Below, piece after piece: positions 16,137 to 62,745 of a stretch of 64,000 bases of DNA (position 1 is the stretch's first letter; every line of letters starts with the position of its first letter). Under the pieces are notes generated by a model, which worked only from the letters and a program-made list of their open reading frames with translations, did not search any database and had not been told where the DNA came from. This DNA comes from a virus, in IMG/VR virus record IMGVR_UViG_3300045988_094428, positions 1 to 64,000 of that record; one strand, 5' to 3'. A program made the position numbers and the translations under genes.

Positions 16137-16703
16137 ATGGCTACACGATGGTATGATTAGGTCTATCTTCCAAATCATCCGAGGGCAGGAACGAACGGAA
16201 ATGTATTTGTCCATGTAATTGTTGCTGAACAAAAGATTGGAAGATACCTGAAGCCGGAAGAAGTTGTTCATCATATCAACATGGATAAGCATGATAATCG
16301 ACCAGAAAATTTATTGGTTGTCGCTACAAATAGTGACCATGCGGCAATTCATAATGGATGTAACTATGAATTGGATAGTGATGGTGTGGCACATTCAATA
16401 AAGAAAGCGTGCTTTTGTAAGGTATGTGGAAAGATTATTTCTTATGGTTCTGAAATGTGTATTGATTGCTGGCATGAATTTTTGAACAAAAATAGTGCTC
16501 CACATAAAATAGTCGATGGACATTGCATAATTATAACACGTGATGAATTAAAATATAAGATACGCCATAAGTCGTTTGTCGGTATCGGCAAAGAATTTGG
16601 TGTCTGTGACAATACGATAAGAAAATGGTGTAAAAAGTACAACCTCCCTTTTAGAACAAAAGATATAAAGAAATATACAGATGAAGAGTGGGTGAGTGTT
16701 TAA
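16137..16703 (+). CDS. HNH homing endonuclease with an in-frame TAG at codon 8 (16158-16160)
   Basis: MATRWYD-TAG-VYLPNHPRAGTNG...VHHINMDKHDNRPENL is the classic HNH N-terminus and HNH motif, continuous across the TAG. Strong RBS AAGAGGAGG. The C-terminal ~60 aa is shared with the 17348-18100 ORF. Confidence 0.6.
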
Positions 16704-16898
16704 CACCCACTAATATACGTCCTTAGTGTAACGAATAGCACGAAAATCTCCAAAATTTTTAGTAACAGTTTGACTCTGTTAGGACGCGCCAGTTAGACTT
16801 TGTTTGGTTAAGTTAAACATCAATAGCTAGTCTATGTTGGTGAGTTAAAAACCAAGTTCGTGCGCACGAATTTCTTGCGGGAGCAAGGTCGTTTATAT

Positions 16899-16973
16899 GC
16901 GCTTATCGTTCAATGGATAGGACAAAACTCTTCTAAAGTTTTTATGTGGGTTCAATTCCTACTAGGCGTACCA
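16899..16973 (+). tRNA. tRNA-Arg (anticodon TCT), CCA encoded
   Basis: Acceptor GCGCTTA/TAGGCGT, D arm GTTC/GGAC, anticodon arm AAACT-CTTCTAA-AGTTT, T arm GTGGG-TTCAATT-CCTAC. Confidence 0.7.
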
Positions 16974-16974
16974 C

Positions 16975-17060
16975 AGACGCATACAGCAATCCATAAATTT
17001 TGATGGTTTAAAAAGAATGCTTAAAACAATCTTTTACGGTTCGATTCCGTTCTGCGTCTA
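16975..17060 (+). ncRNA. tRNA-like element, identity unresolved
   Basis: Acceptor-like pairing AGACGCA/TGCGTCT; T8A9; T arm ACGG-TTCGATT-CCGT. No convincing D/anticodon arm by hand; 85 nt. Confidence 0.3.
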
Positions 17061-17137
17061 ATTTTTAGTTATTCTTTATCTTTTTCTGAATCTGATAGAT
17101 ACGAACAGCAACACTTTCTTTGTTCGCGCCACTAATT

Positions 17138-17212
17138 GCGGATATAGTTTAGATGGTTAGAACGCCACACCGAAATGTGGAGACGTGGGTTCGAGTCCCA
17201 CTTATAGTCGTG
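17138..17212 (+). ncRNA. tRNA-like element, probably a pseudo-tRNA
   Basis: Canonical D arm (GTTT-agatggtta-GAAC) and T arm (GTGGG-TTCGAGT-CCCAC). The anticodon stem CCACA/TGTGG encloses only 6 nt. The acceptor stem does not pair. Confidence 0.3.
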
Positions 17213-17220
17213 TCTAATAT

Positions 17221-17293
17221 GCCCGGTTAGTCAAGTTGGCTAAGACGAGTGATTCTCAATCACTAGGCGGCAGTTCAATCCTGCCACCGGGTA
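17221..17293 (+). tRNA. tRNA-Glu (anticodon CTC), no encoded CCA
   Basis: Acceptor GCCCGGT/ACCGGGT, anticodon arm AGTGA-TTCTCAA-TCACT, T arm GGCAG-TTCAATC-CTGCC. Confidence 0.6.
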
Positions 17294-17298
17294 CTTTA

Positions 17299-17330
17299 TG
17301 GTCGAGTAGCTCAGTTGGTTAGAGCAGTAG
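17299..17330 (+). ncRNA. Truncated tRNA 5' fragment (acceptor + D arm), directly upstream of the PD-(D/E)XK endonuclease gene
   Basis: GGTCGAG-TA-GCTC-AGTTGGTTA-GAGC-A-GTAGA... but no matching 3' half (no CTCGACC) within 1 kb. Confidence 0.4.
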
Positions 17331-17347
17331 ATAAATGGGGTATGAAT

Positions 17348-18100
17348 ATGGTAAATTCAAAGATGAAAGGCAATATTGCAGAGTCGCGTATTTTATATGA
17401 ATTTGTTTAGAGAGGAATACCAGTTTCAATACCTTACGGCGATAATGAACGCTATGATATGATAGCGGAATTTAATGGAAAGCTGAATAAGATACAGATA
17501 AAGTTCTGCAATCAACAAATAGTTGATGGTTCGATAAGCTGTCCATGTTCTAATATAGTAAATCCATTAACAAAAAGTAAGCATAGAGAATTATATGTTA
17601 ATGATGTTGATTATATGGCATTTTACATATATGTATGGGATGTTGCTGTTATAATTCCAACAAGTTACATAGGGAATAGGATTCAGATAAAGATTAGAAA
17701 AGAACGTGCAAAGAACAATCAAACTACAGCTTCTACATTTGTTGATGACTTTACTTTTGATAAAATTGTTGGAGCAGATGTTCGTAATGTGATAGAAGAA
17801 CAACAAAATGTATATGAAAAAGCATATAATAGATGTGTTGATTGCGGATGTGCCATATCGGATAGGGCTGTGAGATGTTTAAGGTGTAGAAACTTGAAGC
17901 AATATGAAGAAACGGCAAATCCGAATATGATAGATAGAGACACGCTTAAATCCATGATTAGAAATATGCCATTTAAGCATATCGCATCTATATGTGGAGT
18001 TTCAGATAACTGTATTAGAAATTGGTGTAAAAGATATAATCTTCCATATCGTACATCTGACATTAAGAAATATACAGATGACGAGTGGAGTGATGTATAA
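17348..18100 (+). CDS. PD-(D/E)XK (Hjc/archaeal-resolvase-like) endonuclease with C-terminal domain shared with the HNH protein; in-frame TAG at 17408-17410
   Basis: GNIAESRILYEFV-TAG-RGIPVSIPYGDNERYDMIAEFNGKLNKIQIK matches the E..V...L...G..V..P..D...YD.I.E..GK...IQ.K nuclease core across the TAG. C-terminus ...NCIRNWCKRYNLPYRTSDIKKYTDDEW matches the 16137-16703 ORF. Confidence 0.5.
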
Positions 18101-18239
18101 TTTTTAGCTAATTACCAAAACAATATCCCACTGACATAATAATACCCATTTTTTCGGTTTGGCTAACAGCGCATAGCTATAAAAGTCTAGGATTATTGGA
18201 TAGGCTAACAATGACTGCTGGAAAGACAGCAATTTATAT

Positions 18240-18316
18240 GCGGCAGTAGTTCAACTGGATAGAACAATCGGCTACGAACCGATAGGTTGCGAGTTCAAGT
18301 CTTGTCTGCCGTACCA
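18240..18316 (+). tRNA. tRNA-Arg (anticodon ACG), CCA encoded
   Basis: Acceptor GCGGCAG/CTGCCGT, anticodon arm ATCGG-CTACGAA-CCGAT. Confidence 0.7.
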
Positions 18317-18438
18317 GATAAATGAGTCTCAAATTACGCTGGACAAAGGGGAGCCTTTTATGGGTGACTGTTATGACAGTGACCCTGATTATCGGTGACG
18401 ATACTAACTCATGAGAGTGCGTAAGCCGACATTTATAT

Positions 18439-18524
18439 GTGCGTGTATCCGAATTGGCATAGGAGCTGCTTTGAGATGGCAGTGTCGAAAGACATTGTGG
18501 GTTCAAGTCCCACCATGCACACCA
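18439..18524 (+). tRNA. tRNA-Leu (anticodon GAG), class II with GAAA-capped variable arm, CCA encoded
   Basis: Acceptor GTGCGTG/CATGCAC, anticodon arm CTGCT-TTGAGAT-GGCAG, variable arm TGTC-GAAA-GACA, T arm GTGGG-TTCAAGT-CCCAC. Confidence 0.65.
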
Positions 18525-18527
18525 AAA

Positions 18528-18649
18528 TACAGGATGGTTTCAATGGTAAAACATCGCCAAAATAAGAATGTGTCTATGTAGACATAAGCCGCAATTATTT
18601 TTTCTTAAAAGCCAAGACGAAGATGTTGGTTCGACCCCAACTCCTGTAT
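18528..18649 (+). ncRNA. 122-nt tRNA-like RNA 'A'. Perfect acceptor, D and T arms, but ~50 extra nt (with a TGTCTA-TG-TAGACA hairpin) in place of a normal anticodon arm.
   Basis: Acceptor TACAGGA/TCCTGTA (7/7), D arm GTTT-caatggta-AAAC, T arm GTTGG-TTCGACC-CCAAC. Internal segment cannot be folded into a 5-7-5 anticodon arm by hand. Confidence 0.4.
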
Positions 18650-18656
18650 TTATTAT

Positions 18657-18732
18657 GCGAGATTAACTCAACTGGAAGAGTGCTACCCTTACAAGGTAGA
18701 AGTTACAAGTTCGAGTCTTGTATTTCGCACCA
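18657..18732 (+). tRNA. tRNA-Val (anticodon TAC), CCA encoded
   Basis: Acceptor GCGAGAT/ATTTCGC, anticodon arm CTACC-CTTACAA-GGTAG, T arm ACAAG-TTCGAGT-CTTGT. Confidence 0.7.
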
Positions 18733-18818
18733 TACGACAGTTTATAAGCTAAACAAGTCCTGCCGTGGACAAAACAAAAACTTAATTTGCGGTTGAGTGA
18801 CCTTAAACTCACCATTAT

Positions 18819-18935
18819 GGCTGTGTAGCTCAATAGGCTAGAGCGCGTAAAACCTATCTATTTTAGATAGTAACAGCTACACATTTTTCCATTATAAGGA
18901 CGAGGTTTATGGTTCGAGTCCATACGCAGCCACCA
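18819..18935 (+). ncRNA. 117-nt tRNA-like RNA 'B'. Same architecture as A, with a ~50-nt insert containing a CTATCTA-tttt-AGATAG hairpin.
   Basis: Acceptor GGCTGTG/CGCAGCC, D arm GCTC-aataggcta-GAGC, T arm TATGG-TTCGAGT-CCATA, CCA encoded. Confidence 0.4.
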
Positions 18936-19327
18936 AAAATCTAAAAAAGAAGGGAAATGAATCCGATGCAGTAGATTGATAATAATAATCCTATGGTTTT
19001 CTTTCAAATGTTGGGTGAAGTTGCCGGTGATAACATCATGAGCAAGATTTCCCGACTAAAGATTAGTGAAGAAAATGGAATTGTTACTTTATATCTAAGA
19101 GATGAACGTGAACCGTTTAACGATAGTGAACTTAGACAGCTAAGATACATCTTAGAAAGATGGTATGATATAATTTCTTTTAGGCGTGAAGATAGGCTTA
19201 CTATGTTAGATATGAAGGTAAGAAAATAACCCTCCTTTATTTTTATATATAAAAAGACACATCCAGCAAACTTTTATTAAATTTTGAGTAGCCTTATGAT
19301 TCAATTTTTAATGTGTCTTTTAGATTT

Positions 19328-19415
19328 GCCAGTGTAGTTCAGTTGGTAGAACGCGGGTTTTGTAATCCCGATGCCGAAAGGGTTCTCGCAGGTTCGAGTC
19401 CTGTCACTGGCTCCA
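19328..19415 (+). tRNA. Class II (long variable arm) tRNA with atypical anticodon region CGGGT-TTTGTAA-TCCCG (anticodon TGT by canonical numbering; contains GTA)
   Basis: Acceptor GCCAGTG/CACTGGC perfect, D arm GTTC/GAAC, 17-nt variable arm, T arm GCAGG-TTCGAGT-CCTGT, CCA. Anticodon stem has a U-U at its base, so the loop is effectively 9 nt. Confidence 0.45.
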
Positions 19416-19416
19416 T

Positions 19417-19492
19417 GCCACTTTAATTCAGTAGATAGAATGATGCGTTCGTATCGCATACGTCGTAGGTTTGATTCCTACAGGTGGCTCCA
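19417..19492 (+). tRNA. tRNA-Thr (anticodon CGT), CCA encoded
   Basis: Acceptor GCCACTT/AGGTGGC, D arm ATTC/GAAT, anticodon arm ATGCG-TTCGTAT-CGCAT, T arm GTAGG-TTTGATT-CCTAC. Confidence 0.7.
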
Positions 19493-19630
19493 ATCGCACC
19501 TATGCTGTGGTAGAATAGGTATAGGCAAGTATTTTAACTACCGTGTCCATAGAGTTAATGGACTTGGGAGGTACTGACAAGACAGAAGAGCAAGTACCAT
19601 GCACGTGGGCGGGTATTCGTGCTTTCATTT

Positions 19631-19718
19631 GCGCTCGTAGCTAAGTTGGTATAGCACCGGACTTTTAATCCGGGGTGGATTATTCCTATCGTGGGTTCAA
19701 GTCCCACCGGGCGCACCA
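19631..19718 (+). tRNA. Class II-architecture tRNA with anticodon TTT (Lys-reading anticodon on a long-variable-arm scaffold), CCA encoded
   Basis: Acceptor GCGCTCG/CGGGCGC, D arm GCTA/TAGC, anticodon arm CCGGA-CTTTTAA-TCCGG (perfect), 17-nt variable arm with GGA/TCC stem, T arm GTGGG-TTCAAGT-CCCAC. Confidence 0.5.
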
Positions 19719-19866
19719 CGCGGTAAGTAGTTTTCGAGTTGCGACTATTGTAGCTGGTATTCGTAAAAAATATAGTAAATGCGTGATATGACAGTATGCC
19801 GCGTTTGTGTCAAGGAACAAGCACATTGCGGATAAACCGATGACTGCTGGAAAGACAGCGTTTTAT

Positions 19867-19943
19867 GTTTCCATAGCTCAGTTGGTTAGAGCGCAATCCT
19901 GATAAGATTGAGGTCGAATGTTCAATTCATTCTGGAAACACCA
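19867..19943 (+). tRNA. tRNA-Ile (anticodon GAT), CCA encoded
   Basis: Acceptor GTTTCCA/TGGAAAC, D arm GCTC/GAGC, anticodon arm CAATC-CTGATAA-GATTG, T arm GAATG-TTCAATT-CATTC. Confidence 0.75.
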
Positions 19944-19955
19944 CTTATTTATTAT

Positions 19956-20046
19956 GTGGTAGTACCCAAGAGGTTGAAGGGGCTTGCTTGGAAAGCAAGT
20001 AGGCGGCGTAAGCCGTGCAGGGGTTCAAATCCCTTCTACCACGCCA
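19956..20046 (+). tRNA. tRNA-Ser (anticodon GGA), class II, CCA encoded
   Basis: Acceptor GTGGTAG/CTACCAC, anticodon arm CTTGC-TTGGAAA-GCAAG, 19-nt variable arm GGCGGC-gtaa-GCCG, T arm AGGGG-TTCAAAT-CCCTT. Confidence 0.7.
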
Positions 20047-20173
20047 CGACCGTAAAGATGAACAAAATGGAGCATACGGTGTTACAAAACCGTCTCGGAG
20101 TGATTGTATCACAAGGGGATTTAACGGAATATATGCTCGATGCGTGGTTCGCAAAACCTAAATTGCAAATATG

Positions 20174-20247
20174 CGTCATGTGCCAGACGGCTAGGCGAGA
20201 GACTGCAAATCTCTTTTAGATTGGTTCGACTCCAATATGACGCTCCA
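20174..20247 (+). tRNA. tRNA-Cys (anticodon GCA), CCA encoded
   Basis: Acceptor GCGTCAT/ATGACGC perfect, anticodon arm AGAGA-CTGCAAA-TCTCT, T arm ATTGG-TTCGACT-CCAAT. Confidence 0.7.
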
Positions 20248-20564: not shown

Positions 20565-21095
20565 ATGAAGAAACTGCTAGGAGCTATCATTGCTTTGCTT
20601 ACAACATTTGTGATAATTTGCGCTGTGGCAGTTCCGTCAAAAGCGGCAGATTTTAGTGACAAGTTTGAATTATATGAATCGTGGAATAACAATCTAAAAG
20701 TATATACAAGAGAAGTGAGTGAGGAACTTGATGTTCCGTATTCTGCGTTAGTTGCTATTATCTATCACGAGTCAAGATTTAAGAACGATGTTGGCACAAG
20801 CTATATTGGCCTAATGCAAGTTGGATGTACGTCAGATATTTTGAATTTTCTTTCAAATAATGGACTAAAAACATCTAAGAAAGGTTTGTATAACCCAGAG
20901 ACAAACATTAGAGCTGGTGCATTGATTCTTAGATACGCAATGGATAAAGCCACAAATATGGAAGATGCGTTCTATATTTATACTTGCGGCGAGGGTGCTG
21001 TAAAAAAGCGAAAGGCGAACGGTCAGAAGAAAAATAAAGCTACTATTGAAATTACAGAGCTTTATTACGAATATTCTGAATACTTTGCTGAATAG
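20565..21095 (+). CDS. Lytic transglycosylase (SLT domain) with signal peptide. The TAG at 21093-21095 is followed by 60 stop-free, protein-like codons to TGA 21276-21278, so a read-through product 20565-21278 is possible.
   Basis: IIYHESRFKNDVGTSYIGLMQV (catalytic E-S, GLMQ motif); N-terminal hydrophobic leader. Extension GKSDYRQFLLDELNGVQSELDETNGLLQ... is coiled-coil-like. Confidence 0.55.
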   Translation: MKKLLGAIIALLTTFVIICAVAVPSKAADFSDKFELYESWNNNLKVYTREVSEELDVPYSALVAIIYHESRFKNDVGTSYIGLMQVGCTSDILNFLSNNGLKTSKKGLYNPETNIRAGALILRYAMDKATNMEDAFYIYTCGEGAVKKRKANGQKKNKATIEITELYYEYSEYFAE

Positions 21096-21293
21096 GGTAA
21101 ATCTGATTATCGACAGTTCCTATTAGATGAACTAAATGGGGTTCAGTCAGAACTCGACGAGACGAACGGTTTGCTTCAGTCTTGTGAAGTGTATCAGTCC
21201 GACTATTACAACCAGCAGTTGTTGTTTATAGAGCAAAAGATAGACTTCATAAATTCTGAATTAAAAAATTTAGAATGACCTCTTGACTTCTTG

Positions 21294-24276: not shown

Positions 24277-24395
24277 TTATAGGGATGATTGACATGGATA
24301 TGAATAAGAATGTGTAGGTAAATACCTACTCTTTTTCAAAACTAAAAAGTTTCTTTAATTGTAAATATTACTATTATCTTCATTATTTTGATGAT

Positions 24396-25085
24396 ATGAA
24401 GATGATTCCAGAGTCACACGGTACAAGCGAATTTGGGTCATATATGCACAAGATATTGGAGATGTATGGAAAAGGTGAACTTGATATATATGATATGCTT
24501 TCGTATTATGAGAAGCATTATGCAGAGAATGTAACATCTACTTTCACTTTGCAGATGGAAAAGAACTTTTCAAGGGATATGGGGTATAAATATTACAAGG
24601 ACGGCTATGATTTTCTAAGTAATTTTACAGGTTTTGATTTTAAGATTTTAGAAACTGAAAAACATTTTGAACTACCTTTCAAAGACAAATTTAGATTGCA
24701 AGGTCAAATAGACGTTATTGCAGAAAACGATGATGGCCTACTGATTATTGATTATAAATCTAAAGGAAATTGGAAGAGCAAAGCGGAACGCATCGAATAC
24801 GAGAAGCAGTTATATTCCTATGCTTGGGCAATGAAACAAATGTATGGCGAATATCCGAAAAAGATGGCGTTCTTTATGTTTAGATTAAATAAATGGACAT
24901 GGGTTGATTTCGACGAGAATAGGCTAAACGAAGTCTTAAACTGGATAGAATCAACCGTTAATGAGATAGAGGGCGAATTTGAGTTCAAACCTATCACTCA
25001 AGAGAACAATGGAAAGTTCGACTTCTATTGTAACAATTTCTGTGATTTTCGTCATCAATGTCCTTACGGACAATTAACTAACTAA
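24396..25085 (+). CDS. PD-(D/E)XK nuclease of the Cas4/RecB family with C-terminal four-cysteine cluster
   Basis: QGQIDVIAENDDGLLIIDYKSKG (D...D/ExK core) and C-terminal CNNFCDFRHQCPYG. Confidence 0.55.
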   Translation: MKMIPESHGTSEFGSYMHKILEMYGKGELDIYDMLSYYEKHYAENVTSTFTLQMEKNFSRDMGYKYYKDGYDFLSNFTGFDFKILETEKHFELPFKDKFRLQGQIDVIAENDDGLLIIDYKSKGNWKSKAERIEYEKQLYSYAWAMKQMYGEYPKKMAFFMFRLNKWTWVDFDENRLNEVLNWIESTVNEIEGEFEFKPITQENNGKFDFYCNNFCDFRHQCPYGQLTN

Positions 25086-28075: not shown

Positions 28076-29734
28076 ATGGCAAATTATACAATTTACCATC
28101 TTCATACCATGCTAAGTAATGCAGTAACAAATATCGACTCAGTTACTACGTTTAAGCAATACATAAAAAGAGCACAAGAGTGCGGTATGACCGCACTTGC
28201 TTTTTCAGAGCATGGTAATATTTTTGAATGGGTTCACAAGAAAGACGCTGTTGAAGCCGCTGGTTTGAAATATATTCATGCAATGGAGGCATATCTTACA
28301 GAGCGCATTCCAGATGAGGGCGAAGAAAAAATTCGTGATAACTACCACTGTGTTTTGATTGCCAAAAACTGGGAGGGTGTTAAGGAACTTAACCGTTTAC
28401 AAGGAAAGGCATTCAATAGAACAGACGGTCATTACTACTACGCACCGAGAATTACATTTGCTGAATTATTTGCTACAAGTAATAATATCATTATTACCAC
28501 AGCTTGTGTTGCATCTGCATTATGCAAAGGAACAGAAAGCGCGAAGGCGTCATATCTTAGATTTCTGACGAGACATAAAGATAGATGCTTCTTGGAAGTT
28601 CAGCATCATAATACGCAAAAGCAGTTTGAGTATAATAGATATTTGGCAAATCTGTCTAAGGAAACTGGTCTTAGATTGATTGCTGGTACTGATACGCATT
28701 GTTTAAACGCAGAGCATGAACTTGGTCGTAGCGCACTACAGCGTGGCAAGGGCGTTTTTTTCGATGATGAAGTCGGTTGGGATTTGACATGGAAAACCTA
28801 CGATGAACTTGTCGAGGCATATAGAACGCAAGATGCTCTCAGTGAAGAAGAATATATGTCTGCAATCAATAACACAAATGTTATGGCAGATATGATTGAA
28901 ACCTTTGAACTTGATAGAAGTTTCAAGTACGCAAAGATTTACGATGATGGTGAAAAAGTCCTCCGTGAAAAGTTGTTTGCGCCAGAAACTATCGAGCCGA
29001 TTATCAAGGAGGGATTTTCAAGAGAAGAAGTAACTGCGCGTTTGGAGCAGGAAATTGACACTTTTAAGGCTTTGAACGCAACTGACTTTATTCTTCTCGA
29101 AGACCATATTGTGCGTTGGGAGCATTCGCATGATATGTGGCAAGGCCCTGCGCGTGGAAGCGCCGCTAGTTCCTTGGCTTTGTACGCTTTGGGCGTGACA
29201 GAAGTGAACCCATTGAAATATGGATTTTATTTCTGGCGATTCATGGATAAATCTAAGTACAGCTTGGCTGATGTTGATATGGATAACTCGGCAAAAGACC
29301 GTGATAAACTGAAGTTCTGGATGTTGAACGACCACCTAGACCTTCCGAATGTCAAGACTTGTGAAATTATTACGTTCAACACAATCGCATTAAAGGGCGC
29401 AATTCGTGATATTGGACGTGGATTGGATATGCCTCTCGATGAGGTTGATACGATTGCAAAAGCTGTTCATGAAGTAGCAGTCGATGAAGAAAAGATTGTT
29501 ACTATTGATGATAGCTGGCGTAAGAAATATCCAGAGTTGTTCAAGTACGTTGATATTGTTATTGGCACTATCGTTAGCATCGGTTCTCATCCGTCTGGTG
29601 TTGTTGTTTCCGACCATGACATTGAATCGGAATTTGGCCTGTGCTATCTAAAAGATGACCCCTATCCTGTCTCCTGCATCAATATGAAGGAACTTGATTC
29701 CCTTAATTTTACCAAACAGGATGCCCTTGGGTAA
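28076..29734 (+). CDS. dnaE: DNA polymerase III alpha (DnaE-like), N-terminal portion (PHP domain through the finger region); reading frame leaves the polymerase around 29711-29734
   Basis: PHP-domain start YHLHTMLSNAV...ALAFSEHGNIFEW. C-terminal end ...CINMKELDSLNF aligns to the DnaE LLKMDF box. Confidence 0.6.
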   Translation: MANYTIYHLHTMLSNAVTNIDSVTTFKQYIKRAQECGMTALAFSEHGNIFEWVHKKDAVEAAGLKYIHAMEAYLTERIPDEGEEKIRDNYHCVLIAKNWEGVKELNRLQGKAFNRTDGHYYYAPRITFAELFATSNNIIITTACVASALCKGTESAKASYLRFLTRHKDRCFLEVQHHNTQKQFEYNRYLANLSKETGLRLIAGTDTHCLNAEHELGRSALQRGKGVFFDDEVGWDLTWKTYDELVEAYRTQDALSEEEYMSAINNTNVMADMIETFELDRSFKYAKIYDDGEKVLREKLFAPETIEPIIKEGFSREEVTARLEQEIDTFKALNATDFILLEDHIVRWEHSHDMWQGPARGSAASSLALYALGVTEVNPLKYGFYFWRFMDKSKYSLADVDMDNSAKDRDKLKFWMLNDHLDLPNVKTCEIITFNTIALKGAIRDIGRGLDMPLDEVDTIAKAVHEVAVDEEKIVTIDDSWRKKYPELFKYVDIVIGTIVSIGSHPSGVVVSDHDIESEFGLCYLKDDPYPVSCINMKELDSLNFTKQDALG

Positions 29735-32621: not shown

Positions 32622-33130
32622 GGAGGCATTCTATGTGGCTACTTTGTAGCGTATCAGATAACGAGCTTCTTGCTCCAAGTATTTGCAGTTCGAAGGAACT
32701 CGCGTTAAGGAAAATGGATAGCAGTATCAATTTTATCCTTAATGACTTAGATAGTGATGGTATCGACTATGATACACACGTTGGCTCTGATGGATTGAGC
32801 TATCAGATTGTATGTGACGATAATATTTGGACTTGGAAGATTTTCCATTTGGAAATGAAGGTGGCGTAAAATGAAGGTAGAAATTTCTTACGATAAGATT
32901 GAGACGCTTGATGGAAAAAAGGTAAAACTTGACGTTGACAATATTTTGTCACGTAAACTATCTGTCGCAGATAGATTCAGAAAATTCTTGCTAAAGAATA
33001 AGGATGTTGTGTTTACTGCGATTGATACAAAAAAAGGCACTAAGTTCACTGGTATCGCTTATGAGTTAGCAGAGGATAATTCTCCTGTTAAGTGGTTATT
33101 TTACGCGGATGATTTAATTGCTGTTGAGGG

Positions 33131-33637: not shown

Positions 33638-33648
33638 GGAGTATAACG

Positions 33649-36337: not shown

Positions 36338-36374
36338 TGAAACCCCTTGACAAATCAAGGGGTTTCTGTTATAA
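36338..36374 (+). promoter_or_regulatory. Promoter whose -35 box sits in the loop of a terminator-like hairpin
   Basis: GAAACCCCTT-gacaaatc-AAGGGGTTTC hairpin with TTGACA 36346-36351 and TATAAT 36369-36374. Confidence 0.55.
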
Positions 36375-49257: not shown

Positions 49258-51271
49258 GAGGTATCATTAAGATATGAAAAAGAGTCCTTGTGCCCTTTTA
49301 TACTATGTAGACAGAACAAAAAAGTTTACGCTTGATAGATGCTATGCAATCCACTTGCTAAAACTTGGTTATACAATTAGTGTTTATCGTCAAGCTATTC
49401 GTGGAGACAGTCTTATCGAATGGTGGAGCGAATATTTGCCAAGACGGACAAGACTATATAGAGGTCGGCAATACGAAGCAATGGATGCGAACACGATTAT
49501 CGGTTCATACTGGGATAAACACCAAAATCACTATATTCAGGGTCATATGCCAGCTACAAAAGAAGTGAAATATCTAAAGAATTATAGAGTGGAGTAATTA
49601 TGCAATACTATATTAACACAGTTCCTCTTAACACGGACGTCTGGTGTGTCGGGTTCAAATTTGGCAGAAACAAAATTACAGTAAACAGGCCACCCGTTCT
49701 TGGCAAAGTAAACAATCGCAATTGGAACGCTCGCTTTGTTCCGAATGATAAAAAGGGAAGTTTTTCTGCTAGTAATTATCTGTATTATGATAATTACAAT
49801 GAGGCTGTGACAAACTACAACTGGCTTATTAACAAATATGTACGGATGTTTAGTGGATTCATTGAAGATGTAAGTGCGCACTTTATTAAAAATGAAGATG
49901 GGGAGGTAATTTTTGGATGAATACGCCTATTATTAGCCCTTGGTTTTTCTATTTTGCTGGAATTGCAGATGGACTCGGAATTACTTTAATGGTTTTTGGG
50001 TGTATAGCAATTCTCTTTTCAGCCATTATCCTATCTGCTTCATTTAATGACGACGAGATAGATTTTGCAAAGAAATCTATCAAGGGTATCATTATCGGTG
50101 TTGTTATTGTTATACTCGGTGTTTTCTGTCCGTCAGAAGATACTTGTTATAAGATGGCACTTGCTAAATTTGCAACTCCGCAAAATATTCAAGCAGTTAC
50201 TAAGTATGCTGGTGATACCGCATCAAACGTCAGCGATAGCGTAAGCGATGCCATTAAGGATATTATGGATTATAGTGTTGACCGCATCTATGATATTCGT
50301 AATAATCAGAAGGTCGGTGACGCTAAATGAGTTATGAATTTCTTATGCACAATGTAATTCCGTTTTGTATGGGAGTATATATTGGTAACAAACTGCTTGA
50401 TGCGAAATTCATAGATGCTATATTTTGCGGTTGCGTACTTCTAGTTACTGCTGCACTTGCAGGAAAGGGAGCTATCTAATGAATATTTACACAATCTTGT
50501 GTGTAATTCTTGCATCATACAGTGGATATTTCTATTATCATAAGAAGTATGATGGTTTTGCGTTATCTTGGATTCTTGTTACGCTGATTATTTGGTTACA
50601 GGGAATTGGAGTAATCTAAATGGAAAATAATTCAGTTTGTGATTACCTTGTAAGACCCACTCAAAAACAACTTGCATTTATTGCTGACATTCAAGAATTT
50701 GTCGGTAAACAGTTTACCGGAGTAACAAAAGAGGATGCAAGAGCATATATTTCACAAAACATTGAGATGTATGAATTATTATCAATGGATAGCTGGGCAC
50801 TAGAAAATGGATACTTTTAAGGTGGTAATTTAAATGAAGTATAACTTTACAGTAAAAAGATGTAAATTGGATTTCAAATCACCATACGAAACCAAAAAGT
50901 TTTCTTCTGTTGTCAACAACTACGTGTGGACTTTTAGAGAATTTTGCGAATATGTTACATCGAATAATCTCTCGATGTATATTGTTAAAAGTTATTTTCA
51001 TCCATTCCACAAAGTTCCTTATCACGATTATCAGATTGGATTTACGGAAAAAGTTGGCGATAAGCGTTATTTCGTGCATGATATAACCGTTAATAAAATC
51101 ATTGGTGGCAAGATAGTTGACTTTAATTGGCGTAAGTTTGAAGATAAACTAATAAGTACGGAGTTCTTTAAATTATATAAGATTAAACGACAGAAACGTG
51201 GCAAAGAGGTAATCACCCACAACGTTGTCGGAATCTAAAAAATTAAAATAGAAATACATCGTTGTATACAA

Positions 51272-51305
51272 CACTATGGTAAAATTTACCATAGTGTTTT
51301 TTCGT
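51272..51305 (+). terminator. Rho-independent terminator
   Basis: CACTATGGTAAA-a-TTTACCATAGTG followed by TTTTTTCG. Confidence 0.7.
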
Positions 51306-51312
51306 AAAGTGC

Positions 51313-51341
51313 TTGACAAATCGCGGTATTTTTGGTATAAT
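51313..51341 (+). promoter_or_regulatory. sigma70-like promoter
   Basis: gtgcTTGACAaatcgcggtatttttgGTATAAT. Confidence 0.6.
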
Positions 51342-51568
51342 ATAAGCACAAAGAAACGAAAGTAGTTTAGACTTGCCCAACAGGAGGGTTTTAAGATGAA
51401 ATTTGGAATTGGTGATATTGTTGCAATCATTGTGATTGTGCTGAAAGTGTTTGGTTTGGTCACTGTGTCGTGGACAGCAATTATCAGTTGGTGGCTTGTC
51501 TATTGCCTCGCAAGCTTTGTTTTGCTTTTTGTTACGCATCAATCTAAGTAAGTAGGAGGTAATACACG

Positions 51569-53035
51569 ATGAGTTTTAAAACGCAACAACTGCCCGGTAC
51601 AATACCTGTGGGTGGCTTTACTACACAAAAGTTGAGCGATGTTAAACATGGCATACCAGAGAAGTTTGAAGAGCGTTGTCTTGCAAGAGCTGTAAAAGAT
51701 GGCCGTTTCAACACGGCTATTGGCTTGGTCGAAGCGTTGTCTAATGCAGGATACGAGGCATACCTTGTCGGAGGCTGTGTTCGTGATATGCTTCGTTGTA
51801 AGACTCCAAAAGATTACGACATCACTACATCTGCAACACCAGAGCAGATTGAATCTGTATTCAATAATGAGCAGATTATCGAAACTGGCATCAAACACGG
51901 TACTGTTACGGTTATGATTGATGGCGTAGGTTATGAAATTACCACGTTCCGCATTGATGGTGACTACTCTGATGGTCGGCATCCAGACAGTGTAAAGTTT
52001 GCTAAAACCATTGAGGAAGATTTAGGCAGACGTGATTTTACTATTAACGCTATGGCGTATAATAAAGAACGCGGCTTTGTTGACCCTTATAATGGATTTT
52101 GGCATTTGCACTGCGAGACGATTCGTTGTGTCGGCAATCCTGTTCTTAGATTTCAAGAAGATGGTTTGCGTATTCTTCGTGCTATGCGTTTCGCTTGCGT
52201 ATTTGGTTATAATATTGACGAAGATACGGCTTATGGTATGCGCGTCTGTAAAAAGAAGTTGGAATGTGTATCTAAAGAGAGAATCCGCGCTGAACTTGAT
52301 AAGATGATTTCAACATATAAGTTCGGTGATATTATGATGAAGTTCAGCGATATCCTTGTAGAAATTATCCCAGAACTTGATAATCTAACAGGAAATATCT
52401 CATATACAGAGAAGCCGAGTCGCTTTGACCTTTATACAGACATTGCTCATGAATTTATCGAGGGTGAAAATCACCGCGATAATGTTACTTCCTATGCGTT
52501 ACTGTTCCGCAATCTCACAATGTTTGAAAGCGAAATTCGCAAGCATTTGACTTTGGAAGAAATTGCAACTGCGGCGAGTGCTGTTGCACACAACGTCATG
52601 AAAGACCTGAAGTTCGATAACACTACTATGGAGTCTGTATGTCGTATTATCAAACAGTCTTTTGAACCAGTTCCGATGAACAAGTATAAGATGCGTGTTC
52701 TTATCAATAAACTTGGTAAAGAAGATGCCGAGCGTATGCTCGACTTGATGTTGATGCAGAGCAATATTCCTGCTTGCTACTCATATAGTTGGGAGCAGTG
52801 TTATGATTCCATGAGTATTTTCTATGATGTTAAAGATGAAAACACGTTCACTGTTAAAGACCTTGACATTAACGGATATGACCTTATGGAAATTGGCTTT
52901 AGAGGTATTTACATCCGCAAGACTTTAAATCACCTTTTGCATCTATATTTCTTAGATTCAATCGAGAATAAACATGATGCCTTGTATGCAAAAGCATCCG
53001 AGTTATTTAATTTAAGTGGTGGCAGTATTTTATGA
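51569..53035 (+). CDS. cca: CCA-adding enzyme / tRNA nucleotidyltransferase
   Basis: Head-domain motif EAYLVGGCVRDMLRCKTPKDYDITT (GGxVRD...DxD) of class II CCA/poly(A) polymerases. Confidence 0.7.
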   Translation: MSFKTQQLPGTIPVGGFTTQKLSDVKHGIPEKFEERCLARAVKDGRFNTAIGLVEALSNAGYEAYLVGGCVRDMLRCKTPKDYDITTSATPEQIESVFNNEQIIETGIKHGTVTVMIDGVGYEITTFRIDGDYSDGRHPDSVKFAKTIEEDLGRRDFTINAMAYNKERGFVDPYNGFWHLHCETIRCVGNPVLRFQEDGLRILRAMRFACVFGYNIDEDTAYGMRVCKKKLECVSKERIRAELDKMISTYKFGDIMMKFSDILVEIIPELDNLTGNISYTEKPSRFDLYTDIAHEFIEGENHRDNVTSYALLFRNLTMFESEIRKHLTLEEIATAASAVAHNVMKDLKFDNTTMESVCRIIKQSFEPVPMNKYKMRVLINKLGKEDAERMLDLMLMQSNIPACYSYSWEQCYDSMSIFYDVKDENTFTVKDLDINGYDLMEIGFRGIYIRKTLNHLLHLYFLDSIENKHDALYAKASELFNLSGGSIL

Positions 53036-55767: not shown

Positions 55768-56622
55768 ATGAAGAAAATTATTTCTGGCGTTGTTGCCGCA
55801 GTTATCGCTCTGATTATTGTGGTGACTTGTGTTGTTCGTGTTCCTGTTGGCTATGTTGGAGTTGTTTATTCAGCAAAAGGTGTTGAGCAGACTACGATTT
55901 CTCAGGGTTGGCACTTTATGAGTCCTATGAAACACGTTGCCGACTTCCCAATCAGTCAGCAGCGAATCGTGTTTTCTAATCGTGCCGAAGATTATGGCAC
56001 AAAGGAACACGCAGACTGGCATATTGACGCACCGGCAAATGGCGGCACTATTGCCATTAACCTGACTGTTAATTATAGCTTCGATGCAAACCGTGTCGTT
56101 GAACTTTACACTAAGTTTAACGGAATGAACGGCGAGAGCCTGATGGAAAGCAAGATTCAGAACGATATTATTGCTTATGTCAAGGAAGTTACTCCTAAGT
56201 TTAGCGTAATGCAGATTTATTCCGATGACCGAGCTGGCGTTAATACTGCAATCACCGAATACCTGAACGAAAAGCTGTCTAATGAATATGGCATCAATGT
56301 TGCCTCTGCTCTGATTGTTGATGCACAGCCTGACGAGACTTTGATGCAGAAGATTCGTGCAAAGGAACAGGCAAAACAGGATGCAGAAATCGCTGAACTG
56401 AATAAGCAGACTGCACTTGCACAGGCTGAAACCGATAAGGTTAAAGCACAGGCTGAGGCCGATGTCAAGGTAATTGAAGCACAAGCTGAAGCAGAATCTA
56501 ACCGAATTATTTCTGAATCTATCACTGATAATCTGATTAAGATGAAGGAAGCTGAAGCACGTCTGAAGCACGGTTGGATTACCGTACAGGGTGCCGATAC
56601 AGTCGTTACCAAGGGTGAGTAA
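55768..56622 (+). CDS. SPFH/band-7 (prohibitin/stomatin-like) membrane protein
   Basis: N-terminal TM helix, SPFH-like core, C-terminal Ala/Glu/Gln-rich coiled coil; second SPFH protein in the window. Confidence 0.55.
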   Translation: MKKIISGVVAAVIALIIVVTCVVRVPVGYVGVVYSAKGVEQTTISQGWHFMSPMKHVADFPISQQRIVFSNRAEDYGTKEHADWHIDAPANGGTIAINLTVNYSFDANRVVELYTKFNGMNGESLMESKIQNDIIAYVKEVTPKFSVMQIYSDDRAGVNTAITEYLNEKLSNEYGINVASALIVDAQPDETLMQKIRAKEQAKQDAEIAELNKQTALAQAETDKVKAQAEADVKVIEAQAEAESNRIISESITDNLIKMKEAEARLKHGWITVQGADTVVTKGE

Positions 56623-58052: not shown

Positions 58053-60512
58053 TTAATAATTAAATTCTCTGTCTAAGCCTGCACCAAAACGAATGATATT
58101 TATTTTTTTTGATATTGGTCTTATTACAACAACATCCCACGCTTGTTCTGTTGCATCACCTTCTGTTCTTGACGGAGAAACAAGTCCATAAGTTGTATCA
58201 TAACCAGTAATAGCTCTGATTGAATCAGAATTAACATCTGTTTGTTCAAATTTTCCACACGTTGAAGCAATAGATAACCATGGTTCTGTAAAAGCATAGT
58301 CGCAATGACTATGACCGAATAACTGAATAAATTTACCACCACTTGAAATGAACGTAGAAATAGCATTGTTAATTGCTTCAGACCTTGCTTCTGACGGAAT
58401 CTTGTTGCTAAAATTCTGATTCTTTTGTGTAGACATATGCTCACAAAGAACCACAGTCTTATCTGTGTTCAGCGCTGTATCTATAAACCATGTCTTTGTA
58501 TCTTCTGAGATTACATAAGCATTCAAATAATTTGTATTGATAAATACTACCCTTATGTTCAACTCTTTATAATCAACATAGAAATCAGTTCCATTAGTGG
58601 CTTTGTTTACGATTGCATTTTTAGGGGTCGCAGACATAAATGCTCTGTAAGTCTGCCCTATATCGAATTTAGGACTTGGGTCATAATTCGTATCATGGTT
58701 CCCAACAGCAAACAAGTACGGGATTCCGATACTGTTGAAAGCTGATAACATATAGTCTGCTTGTGATAAAGATGTTTCAATATTACTACTTCCATTTATG
58801 TTATCACCAAGATTTGCAATGAAATCGCAATGAATTTTCTTAGCAAAATACTTTATATTTTTAATGGTTTCGTCAAAATTCTGAAATACTATTGAAGTAG
58901 GTGCATAATGAATATCTGTGATTTTCGGAAACACAAGACAAGGCTCTGTCATGCAATTTCTAACAGAAGCGATAGTTTCGTTCATTTCCGAAACAAATTT
59001 TTCTGATAAATCGTTTTCCAGCTTAGTTATTCTTTTTTCGTGGTCTGACAGCACGGAATCATATACCTTAACTGTTATGCCAAGTTCTTCAAGTGTGATA
59101 GTCGAAGATGTATCTGTTTTTGAGCAAGCGATGCAAATATAAGAATCTACAGATGGAATCCAATCCATAGGTTCTGTTTCCCATCCACCCCGCAAAACAT
59201 TCGTGTACTTTCCATCAGCAAGTGTCCATGCACTTCTTGCAAACTGTTGCCCTAAAATAGTTTCAATATGAACCTTTGTATTTGCTTTTATGAATAGCAA
59301 TTCTGAAAAAGATATTCTTGTCGTTGAACTAACTTTAATTGGTTTTGCTCCACCGGTTTGTCTTGACCATGATACTCTTGCCCAATCTGTAAAAAGCCTC
59401 GACCCATCTTCAAGAAGCATTTTTAACACATCTACATCGTTTCTTAGCGCAGATGTTTTTTCTACAGTGTCAGCAACAGTACCTTGTAAATGCGCATCCT
59501 TTGCCCAATTTGCTGAAATCTTTCTGTTACTATTTACATTAAGTGCAACATAATAACAATCTCTCTTGTTGTTAGTAACTGTTCTTTTATTACCATATGT
59601 TGAATCAAGTGCAAAGTAGTCGATGTATTTTTTGTCTGCATCATATAGTTGGTATTGGTTAGTCGGAAGTGCTTCGCCATCATCTGAATAGATAGTAAAT
59701 ATAGTTCCTTTTGGAATCTCAAATGGTACAAGCTCCGTGCTATTAATTGTACTTTTGTAAAATCCAACAATACCAGAAATTTTAGTTATATCTTCTTTTA
59801 GCTGACTTTCCGCATCGGTAGCTCTATCAATTTCACCCTACAAGTCCTTTCTAATAGAAGTAACTTTAGACGATTCTGCTTTACCAGCCAATTTATCTCC
59901 GACAGTTTTTGCATCAGCGGCATAACCAGAAATTGTAAGTGTTGTGTCTGTCTTTAACGATGCGGCACTTTTAGCGGCAGCATCAGCAGCCGCTTGAGCC
60001 GCTTTTGATGCTGCAAGTGTATCATTATAATATTTGGCAGCGATAGCATTAAAACTATCAATAGCTGCTTGAAGTGCATTTTCATCTTCGATAGGTTCGC
60101 CAGTATCAAGTAATCCTTCCTCAACCTAAAAAGTAGCTGGTTTTGTATGAAGAATATATTGTGATACGTTAGTCATATCATTTGTATCATATATTGATAC
60201 GTCATAAGTTACAGTGCCTTTAGCACTTGTGACATTAGAATCAAGAACCCAGTCGAACAGAACGAATTGCTCGTTACCTTCTGTAATAACCTCTCTGCTA
60301 TTACAGAAAAACTGGTCATAACGATTCAGAGAATTGACATATCTGACAGTAAGAATCTTATCGGTAATATCAATACCATCAATCACTGATGGAATCTTAA
60401 AGGTAATATATCTTGAATCATTATCATTTACAACAGCCAATTCTTCTGTCGCGCTTGGAACGATTGTTCTATTTACAATTTCAAAAATATAAGTTCCGTT
60501 CAAGCTATTCAA
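58053..60512 (-). CDS. Tail-fibre-like protein (~819 codons) with a C-terminal metallophosphoesterase domain, containing two in-frame TAG codons (plus 60126-60128 and 59838-59840)
   Basis: A single continuous frame. ...HTKPATF-TAG-VEEGLLDTGEPIEDENALQAAIDSFNAIAAKYYNDTLAASKAAQAAADAAAK... and ...SIRKDL-TAG-GEIDRATDAESQLKEDI... The downstream segments have no start codon of their own. C-terminal calcineurin-like motifs GDNINGSS and FAVGNHDTNYD. RBS AGGAGG + TTG start at 60512. Confidence 0.6.
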
Positions 60513-61002
60513 CCTCCTAAATTAAAAATAAGGGTGTAGCATTAAGCTACACCCAACTTATTAAATGTACTTATCGTCAGTAATATACTCGTACTCTTCT
60601 GGAGTAATCCAGCCCTTTTTGGTTACATTATAGACCATCTTTTTAGTCCAGAAACCAGAATCGTAGTAATACTCAGCTTTCTTTCCGTGTGCGGACAGTT
60701 CCATATCGTCCATATATTGTACTTCCATATCTTCCATATCTTCCATACCGCCCATACTAGCGGTTTTCTCTTCTTCGACAGGTAGTTCAATATCACTCAT
60801 AACAGCAATATACTCAATCAAAGATTGTTGATTGCTAATCTGAGCATTGCGATGTTCGACCATCTTCTCCTCGTGAGGATTCATAATCGCCTTTTGAAAA
60901 ATCATAATTCTACCTCCATAAATCATTGTAGAATTTATTCATTCGCTATATCAATCTATATGAGTTGCCATGCTCCGCATGAGCAACCCAACAGCTATAG
61001 CA

Positions 61003-61956
61003 CTAATCTATTTTTTCTTTGGTTCTACGACCTTTTACAACAAGTTTAACCATTTTACGTAATTTACGCTTTTCATTCTTAACATTATCTCCAAGGATTG
61101 ACATAACGACCTTGCCGGTTTCGGTAAGTCTGAACTTAAATCCCAAGAATGGAATACCCTTACCAACTCTATAGAGTTTAGTTTTCTTAGGATGCAATTC
61201 AAGACCAATTTTAGCTAGTTCTTCTTGAATCTCGTGCATACACTTGATTAAGTAATTTCTATCGTGATGAATAAGAATAAAGTCATCCATATAACGAATA
61301 TAATACTTAATGTGCATACGTTCTTTAATCTTATGGTCAAGTTTATCCAGAACAGAAATGCCAGCAATCTGAACAACTTGGCTACCGGGATTATACCCGG
61401 TATCACCAAGATATTGTTCATTTAATATTCTACAGACTCTATCTGCATATTCTACTGGTAATTTCTCTCTGAACAAGGCATTTGTTGTATCATGCCGCAT
61501 ATTATCATAATAGTGCTTAATGTCGCATTGCAGAACCCAAGCATCAAGACCGTTCTTTCTGTAGCATCTTTGCAGATGACATTTTAAACGGCCTCTAGCG
61601 AAATCAGTTCCTTTACCCTTTTGACAAGCACAATTATCATAAATAAAACTTCGAGTCATTAACGGATACACTAAATTATCATTAAGACTGCGTTGATATA
61701 CCCTGTCTCTGAAAGCTATGCTCACAGCAATTCTTTCTTTCGGATGAGTGATATGAACAGTCTTAGTTGGACGTGGTTGGTATGTTCCGTTTGCAAGTTG
61801 TTCTTCTAGTTTAAGAACCTATTCAATTCCATGAATATAGAAATTAGCGACAGATTCTTTCCAGCTAACATTTTTCTTGCACTTATATAAAGAATCAAGT
61901 AGGTGCTCGAAGTCTAGGACATTTACTACTTGATTCGATTCCTAATTATTATTCAT
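61003..61956 (-). CDS. Diversity-generating-retroelement reverse transcriptase with two in-frame TAG codons (plus 61942-61944 and 61819-61821)
   Basis: MNNN-TAG-ESNQVVNVLDFEHLLDSLYKCKKN...YIHGIE-TAG-VLKLEEQLANGTYQPRPTKTVHITHPKERIAVSIAFRDRVYQRSL...CACQKGKGTDFA...VLQCDIKHYYDNMRHD...GSQVVQIAGISVL...YIRYMDDFILI. All RT motifs 1-7 present, including YMDD and the DGR-type SQ motif. Frame verified across both TAGs. Confidence 0.8.
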
Positions 61957-62150
61957 TAAACTTTGACACAACAACTAAACTAAGCCGTATATAGGCGTAC
62001 TGGCTCGAAAACCAACGCCATCGGCATAGAGTGGTTTAGTTATCTTTTATAATCTTCCAAGCAAGATAACAGGGTTATAACCTCCTTGTGTTTGAAGTCG
62101 AGAACCTAGCTTGCGCTATACGTAAGATTTTTTATTAGGGACTTTCAAAT

Positions 62151-62270
62151 ACAATCGGGCGAGAACCTATTCGAGTTGCTCGCGTTGTTGTTGTTGACGT
62201 TACCGCTAGAGTTGACATTCCACGTATTATTAGCATTGCCACGATTAGCAGACCGCAAGCGCACATTCTG
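62151..62270 (-). repeat. DGR template repeat (TR)
   Basis: 120-nt near-identical copy of the 3' end of the target gene; differs from VR at 15 positions, all adenines in TR on the coding (minus) strand. Confidence 0.85.
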
Positions 62271-62301
62271 AATCAGGTTATAACCCAAATATATATAAAA
62301 A

Positions 62302-62745
62302 TTAAGTTTCGTCTTTTTCTTTAGATTCTTTAAGGAGATGTCCATACCGAGTACAATCGCTGTGATTCCACTTACGAATTAAACCTCTGACTGAAATAAC
62401 AGATTCAGACCAATACTTAATACGGCTGGCTCTTAGATGATATAACGTCTATGCCAAGTATATAAGGTTTAATAGTGTATTACACGCTTTTGCCGCATCT
62501 CTTTGGAGCTTATCGCGCTCCTGCCATCTTCCAACATTATCGTCAACTCTAATGTTGTTTGCATCCATAAGATTATTAAAGATGGTCAATGCGGAATCTT
62601 GGATTTTTAGTTTGACCGATTCATCATAATCAGGAATAAATACATTCTTGTTAGATGTGATTCTTAAAGTGTAGACTGCAAGCTCTCTGGCTTGCATAAC
62701 GACTTCTAGTCTATTTTCTTTTCTTTGACCAGCCGGAACAGACAT
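62302..62745 (-). CDS. avd: DGR accessory variability determinant (Avd-like four-helix-bundle protein), 98 codons + in-frame TAG (plus 62449-62451) + 49 codons to TAA
   Basis: Position between VR and TR typical of avd. Small basic helical protein. The annotated 98-aa ORF is short for Avd and the frame stays open for 49 more codons after the TAG. Confidence 0.5.

Follow-up and report, generated by a model that had tools for sequence, protein, structure and literature searches.

Genes of the phage contig IMGVR_UViG_3300045988_094428 (IMG/VR) are interrupted by in-frame TAG codons, and the question raised by this locus is whether these codons are translated and, if so, into which amino acid. The DNA analysed here, called the window, comprises the 64,000 nucleotides (nt) from position 1 to 64,000 of this record. 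An original prediction, made from the nucleotide sequence alone, listed eight such codons in the genes of an HNH endonuclease, a PD-(D/E)XK endonuclease, a lytic transglycosylase, a tail fibre and a diversity-generating retroelement (DGR), and proposed recoding or programmed suppression of the amber codon. On the basis of comparison with related genomes, UAG is very probably read as glutamine in cells infected by this phage, as in genetic code 15. Among the glutamine codons of this genome TAG is in the minority, and as a terminator it is essentially abandoned. The genes requiring UAG decoding encode a virion-region protein of 819 amino acids (aa), the reverse transcriptase (RT) and the accessory protein Avd of the DGR, a secreted transglycosylase, three homing endonucleases, FolD and a Cas4-like nuclease.

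Most of the window, from position 1 to about 56.7 kb, is occupied by a plus-strand block of early and replication genes; the minus strand of the remaining part carries late genes. Relatives with approximately 95% identity were found among IMG/VR contigs of 113–150 kb and among many ENA and Logan contigs (cited below by number, L001 and so on), and one ENA scaffold (ERZ28662038 scaffold_87) matches the window at 100% identity over 10.5 kb, at 28649–39161. One relative of 150 kb, IMGVR_UViG_3300045988_127389, was sampled in steps together with other contigs. The GenBank phages searched gave no close match to the window. Precomputed Pfam matches in relatives, outside the window, include the SPbeta structural families YonJ, YonG, YonD, YomX, YomW, YomV and YomU (L123, L132–L134) and a YonO-like RNA polymerase, and from these families the source appears to be an SPbeta-like gut phage of about 150 kb.

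In-frame TAG codons in open genes

All eight predicted TAG codons were found where they had been placed, each inside a frame without TAA or TGA up to the natural end of the gene. In total, the window contains at least 13 sense TAG sites in nine genes, and no TAA, TGA or frameshift occurs in those genes. Since TAA and TGA arise off-frame at a rate of 4.5–10.6% per codon, the open stretches that follow the TAG codons (60, 95 and 594 codons, among others) are not due to chance; for 594 open codons past a true stop the chance probability is p < 1e-11. Identical TAG codons recur in at least eight independent assemblies. Independent gene-calling pipelines have treated TAG as a sense codon in the relatives L123 and L141, and it is written Q in P0087.

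The HNH homing endonuclease gene (16137–16703, plus strand) carries its TAG at codon 8 (16158–16160). A TTGACA-17-TATAAT promoter and a GAGGAGG ribosome-binding site (RBS) stand immediately 5' of the ATG at 16137, and no start codon is available between the TAG and Met49, which lies inside the HNH_3 domain (residues 24–69). The open reading frame (ORF) obtained with genetic code 11 lacks positions 1–58 of the profile phrog_15471. In the PD-(D/E)XK endonuclease gene (17342–18100, plus strand), residues 5–139 match positions 2–137 of the Pfam profile PDDEXK_5 across the TAG at 17408–17410. The TAG of the HNH gene is kept in L029, and that of the PD-(D/E)XK gene in L026 and L029.

The site in the secreted SLT lytic transglycosylase (20565–21278, plus strand; TAG at codon 177, 21093–21095) was initially the least certain of those predicted, because the SLT domain ends before the TAG. 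The homologues of this protein (236–257 aa, 58–65% identity) are unbroken at the site, where they have S, E, K or Q, and the C-terminal extension is common to them. In the 91% identical relative L141 the TAG is kept although the codons on either side have changed; the stored L141 protein has Q at this position, and its pipeline therefore called the gene with TAG as glutamine.

The gene of the 819-aa protein (58053–60512, minus strand) has sense TAG codons at 60126–60128 and 59838–59840, with 690 open codons after the first of them. The label of tail fibre that had been given to this protein was not confirmed: it has a C-terminal calcineurin-like phosphoesterase (Metallophos) domain, and its sole PHROG match is to a family of unknown function. 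Its nucleotide identity of about 96% to relatives is limited to the first 240 codons or so (window position 59787, minus strand; L001 13287–16346). The counterpart in L001 is a 1019-aa ORF with a different, longer C-terminal part, and the difference looks like the swap of a receptor-binding or enzymatic module.

Reading TAG as sense also opens up ORFs that were rejected. Those at 46531–46740 (three TAG codons) and 51225–51551 (two) are not coding-like or have a plausible downstream start, and the TAG codons at 36377 and 41467/41485 sit in promoter-like ccccTTGAC sequences. The TAG at 18972, which also comes from this class of ORFs, is a candidate only. A repeated motif resembling an early promoter, aaaaatttt..aa(a)ccccTTGAC(A/T) followed by a -10 box, was observed on the plus strand at approximately 16075–16115, 36325–36380 and 41415–41490; such sites imitate N-terminal extensions of ORFs when TAG is taken as sense.

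Correspondence between TAG and glutamine codons

The identity of the encoded residue can be read from the codons that relatives have at the same positions. Among strains of about 95% identity, four of the five minus-strand sites compared alternate between TAG and CAG or CAA. At 62449–62451 in avd, L002 has CAG, and L001 and L015 have TAG; the RT codon at 61819–61821 is CAG in L001 and L015 and CAA in L002. In the gene of the 819-aa protein, the codon at 60126–60128 is CAG in L001 and TAG in L015; that at 59838–59840 is CAG in both.

The same comparison was extended to every in-frame TAG codon that late ORFs contain in the window and at three loci of a relative. It yielded 187 aligned codons, namely 58 TAG, 79 CAG, 38 CAA, five GAA, five GAT, one CCG and one CGA. 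Glutamine codons therefore account for 117 of the 129 non-TAG codons at TAG positions, and every change from TAG to CAG is a single C/T transition. The position of TAG varies between strains in late ORFs of 1311 and 538 aa in the relatives, one of which has a 2061-aa ORF with 12 TAG codons. Alignment to homologues, proposed earlier as a way to infer the inserted residue, thus points to glutamine, and these codon patterns strongly support the view that the TAG codons of the window are sense codons equivalent to those for glutamine.

The diversity-generating retroelement

Five of the eight TAG codons first listed lie in the minus-strand late block, where a complete DGR is encoded. Its parts are the RT gene (60910–61956, 348 aa), the template repeat (TR, 62151–62270), which is a 120-nt repeat of the variable repeat (VR), the avd gene (62302–62745, 147 aa) and the target gene (62886–64000), whose start lies beyond the end of the window and whose VR is at 62898–63017; the ORF homologous to this target is 402 aa long in relatives. 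The element thus has the RT, the Avd, a TR/VR pair at the 3' end of the target gene and the adenine-only mismatches that define a DGR.

The window, L001 and L002 share one and the same TR sequence. The TR and VR of the window differ at 15 positions, all of them TR adenines, and among the VRs of four strains (window, L001, L015 and L002) all differences, whether to the TR or to one another, fall at TR adenines. Adenine-only divergence of this kind is the signature of ongoing DGR mutagenesis and shows that the DGR is active; RT and Avd, with five in-frame TAG codons between them, must therefore be made as working full-length proteins. The active DGR is a proof, within the genome itself, that amber-containing genes are expressed.

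The RT has an RVT_1 match and fits the RT profile phrog_1423 over residues 12–347, with sense TAG codons at 61942, 61819, 61003 and 60946. Distant RT homologues align straight through these sites, as had been claimed for the two N-terminal ones, and L010 and L013 have Q at the position of 61942. The TAG at 61003, taken earlier for the terminator, is a sense codon: the conserved C-terminus of DGR RTs, ..CYxxWxAHAxxGNSxKLIxRMxxFYxxLWR, continues past it and through the TAG at 60946. More than 20 distant DGR RTs share the C-terminal motif ..(E/D)CYxxWxAHAxxGNSxKLIxRMDxYYxxLWR, which the window encodes after 61003 and through 60946. The gene ends at or after the TAG at 60910–60912. The RTs of L011 and L014 have a TAA stop exactly at this position, which suggests that the TAG at 60910 may be the real end of the RT. 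In Avd, which fits the profile phrog_3206 over residues 2–144, Q is the commonest residue at the TAG site (62449–62451) in 22 relatives, and the alignment to distant homologues is unbroken there too.

Stop codon usage and distribution of TAG

The first stop of 77 early ORFs is TAA in 51 cases, TGA in 22 and TAG in four. These four comprise a spurious ORF over tRNA genes, the transglycosylase and two TAG-TTA-TGA pairs, so that at most two of about 75 early genes end in TAG, both of them in this arrangement. At 37334–37342 (plus strand) an in-frame TGA stands two codons after the TAG, and the site is kept in L138 and L139. At 44354–44362 (plus strand) the ATG within the sequence is the start codon of the next ORF, and the site is identical in L124–L131. 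Both TAGTTATGA sites are as originally described, and relatives retain them. TAG is common off-frame (448 occurrences), and its rarity as a stop is therefore selective rather than an effect of composition.

Sense TAG codons are about nine times denser in late genes (seven per 2,058 codons) than in early genes (six per 16,441 codons; Fisher p = 2e-4). Their share of glutamine-type codons in the window is 1.4% for early genes and 10% for late genes; it is 8% in the late genes of a relative, which have 34 TAG codons in 9,770. Within the window, neither the endolysin gene nor the holin-like gene contains a TAG. Counting in-frame TAG codons against gene order, as the original prediction had proposed, thus gave an enrichment in late genes with no accompanying TAA or TGA. 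The proposed restriction of TAG to late and selfish genes fails, since FolD and the Cas4-like nuclease also carry a TAG. The related statement that early genes contain no internal stops was wrong, given the sense TAG codons at 24315 (Cas4-like), 30036 (homing endonuclease) and 35197 (FolD).

The nucleotide that follows TAG does not separate sense codons from terminators. All eight of the codons first listed are followed by a purine (six G and two A), not seven as had been counted. Across the 13 sense TAG codons of the window a purine follows ten (p = 0.3), with T or C after those at 30036, 61003 and 60946. In the late genes of the relative a purine follows 26 of 34 TAG codons, compared with 66% of CAA and CAG codons, which is no departure from expectation.

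Start-proximal TAG codons in early-strand genes

Three genes absent from the original list have a sense TAG close to their start. The Cas4-like PD-(D/E)XK nuclease (24300–25085, plus strand) has it at 24315–24317, and a conserved N-terminal motif, YSFSKLKSFFNC (positions 2–51 of the PDDEXK_1 profile), lies between this codon and the first downstream start codon. The TAG is kept in L026–L028 and L030. Its position is also kept in L141, which is about 91% identical to the window in the transglycosylase protein; there the gene opens with ATG AAT AAG TAG and was called as a protein of 258 aa. In FolD (methylene-tetrahydrofolate dehydrogenase/cyclohydrolase; 35173–35961, plus strand) the TAG is codon 9 (35197–35199) and is kept in L138 and L139. 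The gene starts with TTG at 35173 behind an GGGGGTGG RBS. When its TAG is read through, positions 1–91 of the Pfam profile THF_DHG_CYH are covered across the codon; the code 11 ORF lacks positions 1–26.

The third gene (30009–31076, plus strand) encodes a homing endonuclease that is inserted in the gene of DNA polymerase III alpha and separates it into two parts; codon 10 of the endonuclease (30036–30038) is a probable sense TAG. This is the weakest of the added sites. The ATG at 30009 lies behind an AGGTGGTG RBS, and the code 11 start, a TTG at 30060, has no RBS. The PHROG matches of the protein are to homing and intron-encoded nucleases. An insertion of 1.35 kb splits the polymerase (28076–32621, plus strand) into ORFs of 552 and 511 aa. 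The relative L138 lacks the insertion and has the polymerase as a single ORF of 1063 aa. Rfam at the gathering threshold found no group I intron at the insertion.

Four of the six early-strand TAG codons, a small sample, fall within the first 6–10 codons of the gene (HNH, codon 8; polymerase endonuclease, codon 10; FolD, codon 9; Cas4-like, codon 6 approximately). Under standard decoding by the host, the TAG-bearing genes would give short peptides only. TAG would then act as a translational gate, delaying these genes until the decoding of UAG is switched on, and a start-proximal TAG would allow nothing more than a short peptide before the switch. Such a gate would serve genes that host-type promoters switch on early and whose products are wanted late; the four just listed would be of this kind.

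tRNA genes and the decoding of UAG

The tRNA array of the window (14605–20247, plus strand) contains 13 standard and two atypical tRNA genes, none with a CUA anticodon. The search for a suppressor in the window combined ARAGORN (default, intron and low-threshold settings), Rfam on the window and on the array, and a custom scan for CUA anticodon hairpins beside a T-arm, which returned only weak AT-rich chance matches in coding DNA. The tRNA with anticodon CUA that the original prediction had suggested looking for was found by none of these methods in the window, nor in the sampled relatives, and the phage tRNA genes seen in both, more than 30 in number, did not yield a suppressor. Two further arrays are present in relatives: array B (Glu, Gln-CUG, His, Tyr, Leu, Leu, Ile, Gly; at about 139.8–143 kb of IMGVR_UViG_3300045988_127389) and array C (Met, Asn, Gln-UUG, Pro, Asp, Ala, Leu, Ser, Ser). 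The search in relatives ran over the late region and the stretch upstream of the window and covered their genome except for about 10–15 kb, which includes the rest of array B in the lineage of the window and the adjacent gap. A suppressor would most likely lie in this part of the genome; the tRNA-Gln of array B, which is CUG in relatives, is the prime suspect because CUG differs from CUA by one substitution.

Neither of two unusual genes in the array of the window qualifies as the suppressor. The tRNA-like gene at 18819–18932 (plus strand; Rfam, 44.6 bits) has a 40-nt insertion within the 5' strand of the anticodon stem. Without the insertion, which holds a 7-bp hairpin, it forms a perfect arm, CGTCC-ATTATAA-GGACG, and is a tRNA-Ile with anticodon UAU, not CUA. 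Four relatives have this gene unchanged (100% identity) between flanks of 93–95% identity, and array B of the relatives includes Ile(UAU) genes of variable size (77–93 nt). We know of no bacterial splicing route for an insertion of this kind. The degenerate tRNA at 17138–17209 has a loop that reads GAA (Phe-like). It lies just upstream of a truncated tRNA-Phe(GAA): within 17299–18100 (plus strand), the PD-(D/E)XK gene replaces the 3' 45 nt of this tRNA gene, leaving the 5' part up to the anticodon stem at 17299–17331, and the tRNA gene is intact in L027, L028 and L030.

Several other features of the tRNA and RNA genes were observed. The tRNA-Thr(UGU) (19328–19415) and tRNA-Lys(UUU) (19631–19718), both on the plus strand, are 88 nt long with long variable arms, a class II shape that is unusual for these identities. 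An odd, conserved tRNA-like gene near array B of the relatives (L116 8834–8911, L117 5434–5514, L119 8696–8775) is called Asn(AUU) by ARAGORN and has an anticodon-stem mismatch and the loop CUAUUGU. The window also encodes an RNA toolkit (7134–8039, 11468–12967, 15214–16056 and 51569–53035) of a Thg1-like 3'-5' polymerase, a CCA-adding enzyme, an RNA ligase, a kinase/HD protein and a DUF2828/DUF7788 protein, which matches phrog_850 ('RNA-binding protein') and is taken to be Ro60-like. A Y-RNA-like (YrlA) element inside array C of the relatives (L123 2220–2324) scores 38.6 bits, below the gathering score.

Alternative explanations

Several of the affected genes are mobile or selfish, of types that often decay, and there are few TAG codons per gene; these points would suit pseudogenes, or errors of assembly or base calling. 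Against this, the same TAG codons occur in many independent assemblies from different samples, the genes are free of TAA, TGA and frameshifts, changes at these sites in relatives go to glutamine codons, the TAG and the frame after it are retained where neighbouring codons have changed, and the DGR is active. Decay or error is scarcely credible as an explanation and is effectively refuted. It is also highly improbable that TAG encodes another residue, such as Tyr, Leu, Trp, Ser or pyrrolysine. At some sites distant homologues do have other residues (RT codon 47: E, R or L; transglycosylase codon 177: S, E or K; RT position 61003: E or D), but variable columns of distant homologues carry little information, and the close relatives, with CAG or CAA predominating as given above, have no Tyr, Leu, Trp or Ser codon at any TAG position.

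Leaky termination presents a more serious alternative. A near-cognate tRNA-Gln would read UAG part of the time without any CUA suppressor, giving a fixed ratio of short to long product at each TAG. No tRNA(CUA) was seen in anything sampled, the relatives have a tRNA-Gln in each of their two further arrays (CUG in B, UUG in C), the RT apparently terminates at a TAG, and TAG makes up just 8–10% of glutamine-type codons in late genes. This alternative nevertheless appears unlikely: with 50% read-through per codon, the 2061-aa protein with 12 TAG codons would be produced at a yield of 0.02% and the RT with four at 6%, and decoding must therefore be efficient. TAG is, moreover, almost never a terminator, and the lack of a suppressor has to be set against the 10–15 kb of unsampled sequence. 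A somewhat less improbable possibility, though still a doubtful one, is that UAG is decoded efficiently without a canonical tRNA(CUA), or that the start-proximal TAG is a deliberate gate on genes transcribed early and wanted late. In the first case the decoder might be one of the two tRNA-Gln species or an atypical tRNA gene, perhaps helped by the Thg1-like enzyme, the CCA-adding enzyme, the RNA ligase and the Ro60-like protein.

Translation of UAG as glutamine under genetic code 15 remains the favoured explanation, and the following points weigh against it. No tRNA(CUA) was seen in the window (15 tRNA genes) or in the relatives, where the search took in arrays B and C and most of a genome of approximately 150 kb, and neither a release factor nor a glutaminyl-tRNA synthetase was seen in the window. 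The RT apparently ends at the TAG at 60910, which is conserved in close relatives, whereas complete decoding would extend it by 31 codons to the TGA at 60814. The role of TAG in timing is a proposal made from sequence, and the start-proximal pattern rests on four of six early-strand sites. The standard genetic code is assumed for the host. The Pfam and PHROG scans covered part of the window proteins.

Comparison with known recoded phages

Gut phages that read TAG as glutamine (code 15) are known from the crAss-like, Lak, Agate, Garnet, Amethyst and Topaz clades (Borges et al., 10.1101/2021.08.26.457843). The bias of this recoding to late genes is established (10.1101/2021.08.26.457843; PMC9523058; PMC10607447), and proteomic proof that TAG encodes glutamine has been obtained (Peters et al., PMC9523058). 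A suppressor tRNA was detectable in only 40% of the TAG-recoded phage genomes surveyed (10.1101/2021.08.26.457843). The window phage resembles these phages in having TAG at glutamine positions, a bias to structural and late genes, avoidance of TAG as a stop and a TAG content that varies among close relatives. It differs from them in belonging to another lineage, with SPbeta-type families in its relatives and no close GenBank match, and in its light TAG usage together with a few early genes that have one TAG right after the start. The window phage adds an apparently SPbeta-like lineage to the code 15 gut phages already documented, and the window is a clean example of low-density recoding in such a phage.

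The original prediction regarded recoding of a DGR and of homing endonucleases as an addition to known biology, which it is not, as both have precedents. Zeta crAss-like phages have amber codons in DGR RT genes and, at ORF ends, a TAG followed by a back-up stop (PMC12386605), and a recoded intron homing endonuclease in an early gene has been reported, for TGA (Borges et al., 10.1101/2021.08.26.457843). Like those Zeta phages, the window has an RT interrupted by TAG and a gene-end TAG shortly followed by a second stop; unlike them, it also has a recoded Avd, an RT with four TAG codons and DGR activity visible as adenine-only VR divergence. The gut phage phAss-1 of the proposed Phassvirus (about 136 kb) has TAG inside 41 ORFs, including signature phage genes, and three suppressor tRNA genes (PMC10607447). 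For the window phage, by comparison, no suppressor tRNA was found, and phAss-1 has no nucleotide similarity to the window.

Recoding has practical consequences for annotation. With the standard code, the RT, Avd, tail-region and endonuclease genes are truncated or split and DGR finders will miss the element; translation table 15 fits. A different kind of UAG decoding is exemplified by gag-pol of murine leukaemia virus, where a near-cognate tRNA-Gln brings about programmed read-through at a single site, which has an RNA signal downstream and an efficiency that is low and fixed. The window phage is similar in that UAG is read as glutamine without a change in the genetic code of the cell, and dissimilar in that its genome has many such sites, which have no context in common; in relatives a single gene can have as many as 12.

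Other features of the window

The plus-strand early block encodes a primase-helicase, the endonuclease-split DNA polymerase III alpha, a dUTPase, ThyX, FolD, UDG, an RNA ligase, a Thg1-like enzyme and a CCA-adding enzyme. The end of the late block (56.98–64 kb, minus strand) encodes a holin-like ORF, an M15 endolysin, the 819-aa tail-region protein, an XkdX-like protein and the complete DGR.

The RNA ligase at 13–2211 (plus strand) is 732 aa long and has a LAGLIDADG endonuclease match at residues 280–467; its counterpart in L105 and L106 is only 1119 nt long, and the internal element is probably an intein. Within 5796–8039 (plus strand), an adenylosuccinate-synthetase homologue matches the PHROG '2-aminooxy adenylosuccinate synthetase' (PurZ-like), and the next gene encodes a protein with AAA_33 and HD domains. 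Together these two proteins could indicate DNA containing 2-aminoadenine (Z), which, if true, would be of interest beside an adenine-specific DGR. Two SPFH/Band-7 proteins, one with a flotillin domain, are encoded at 13026–14558 and 55768–56622 (plus strand) and are an unusual cargo for a phage.

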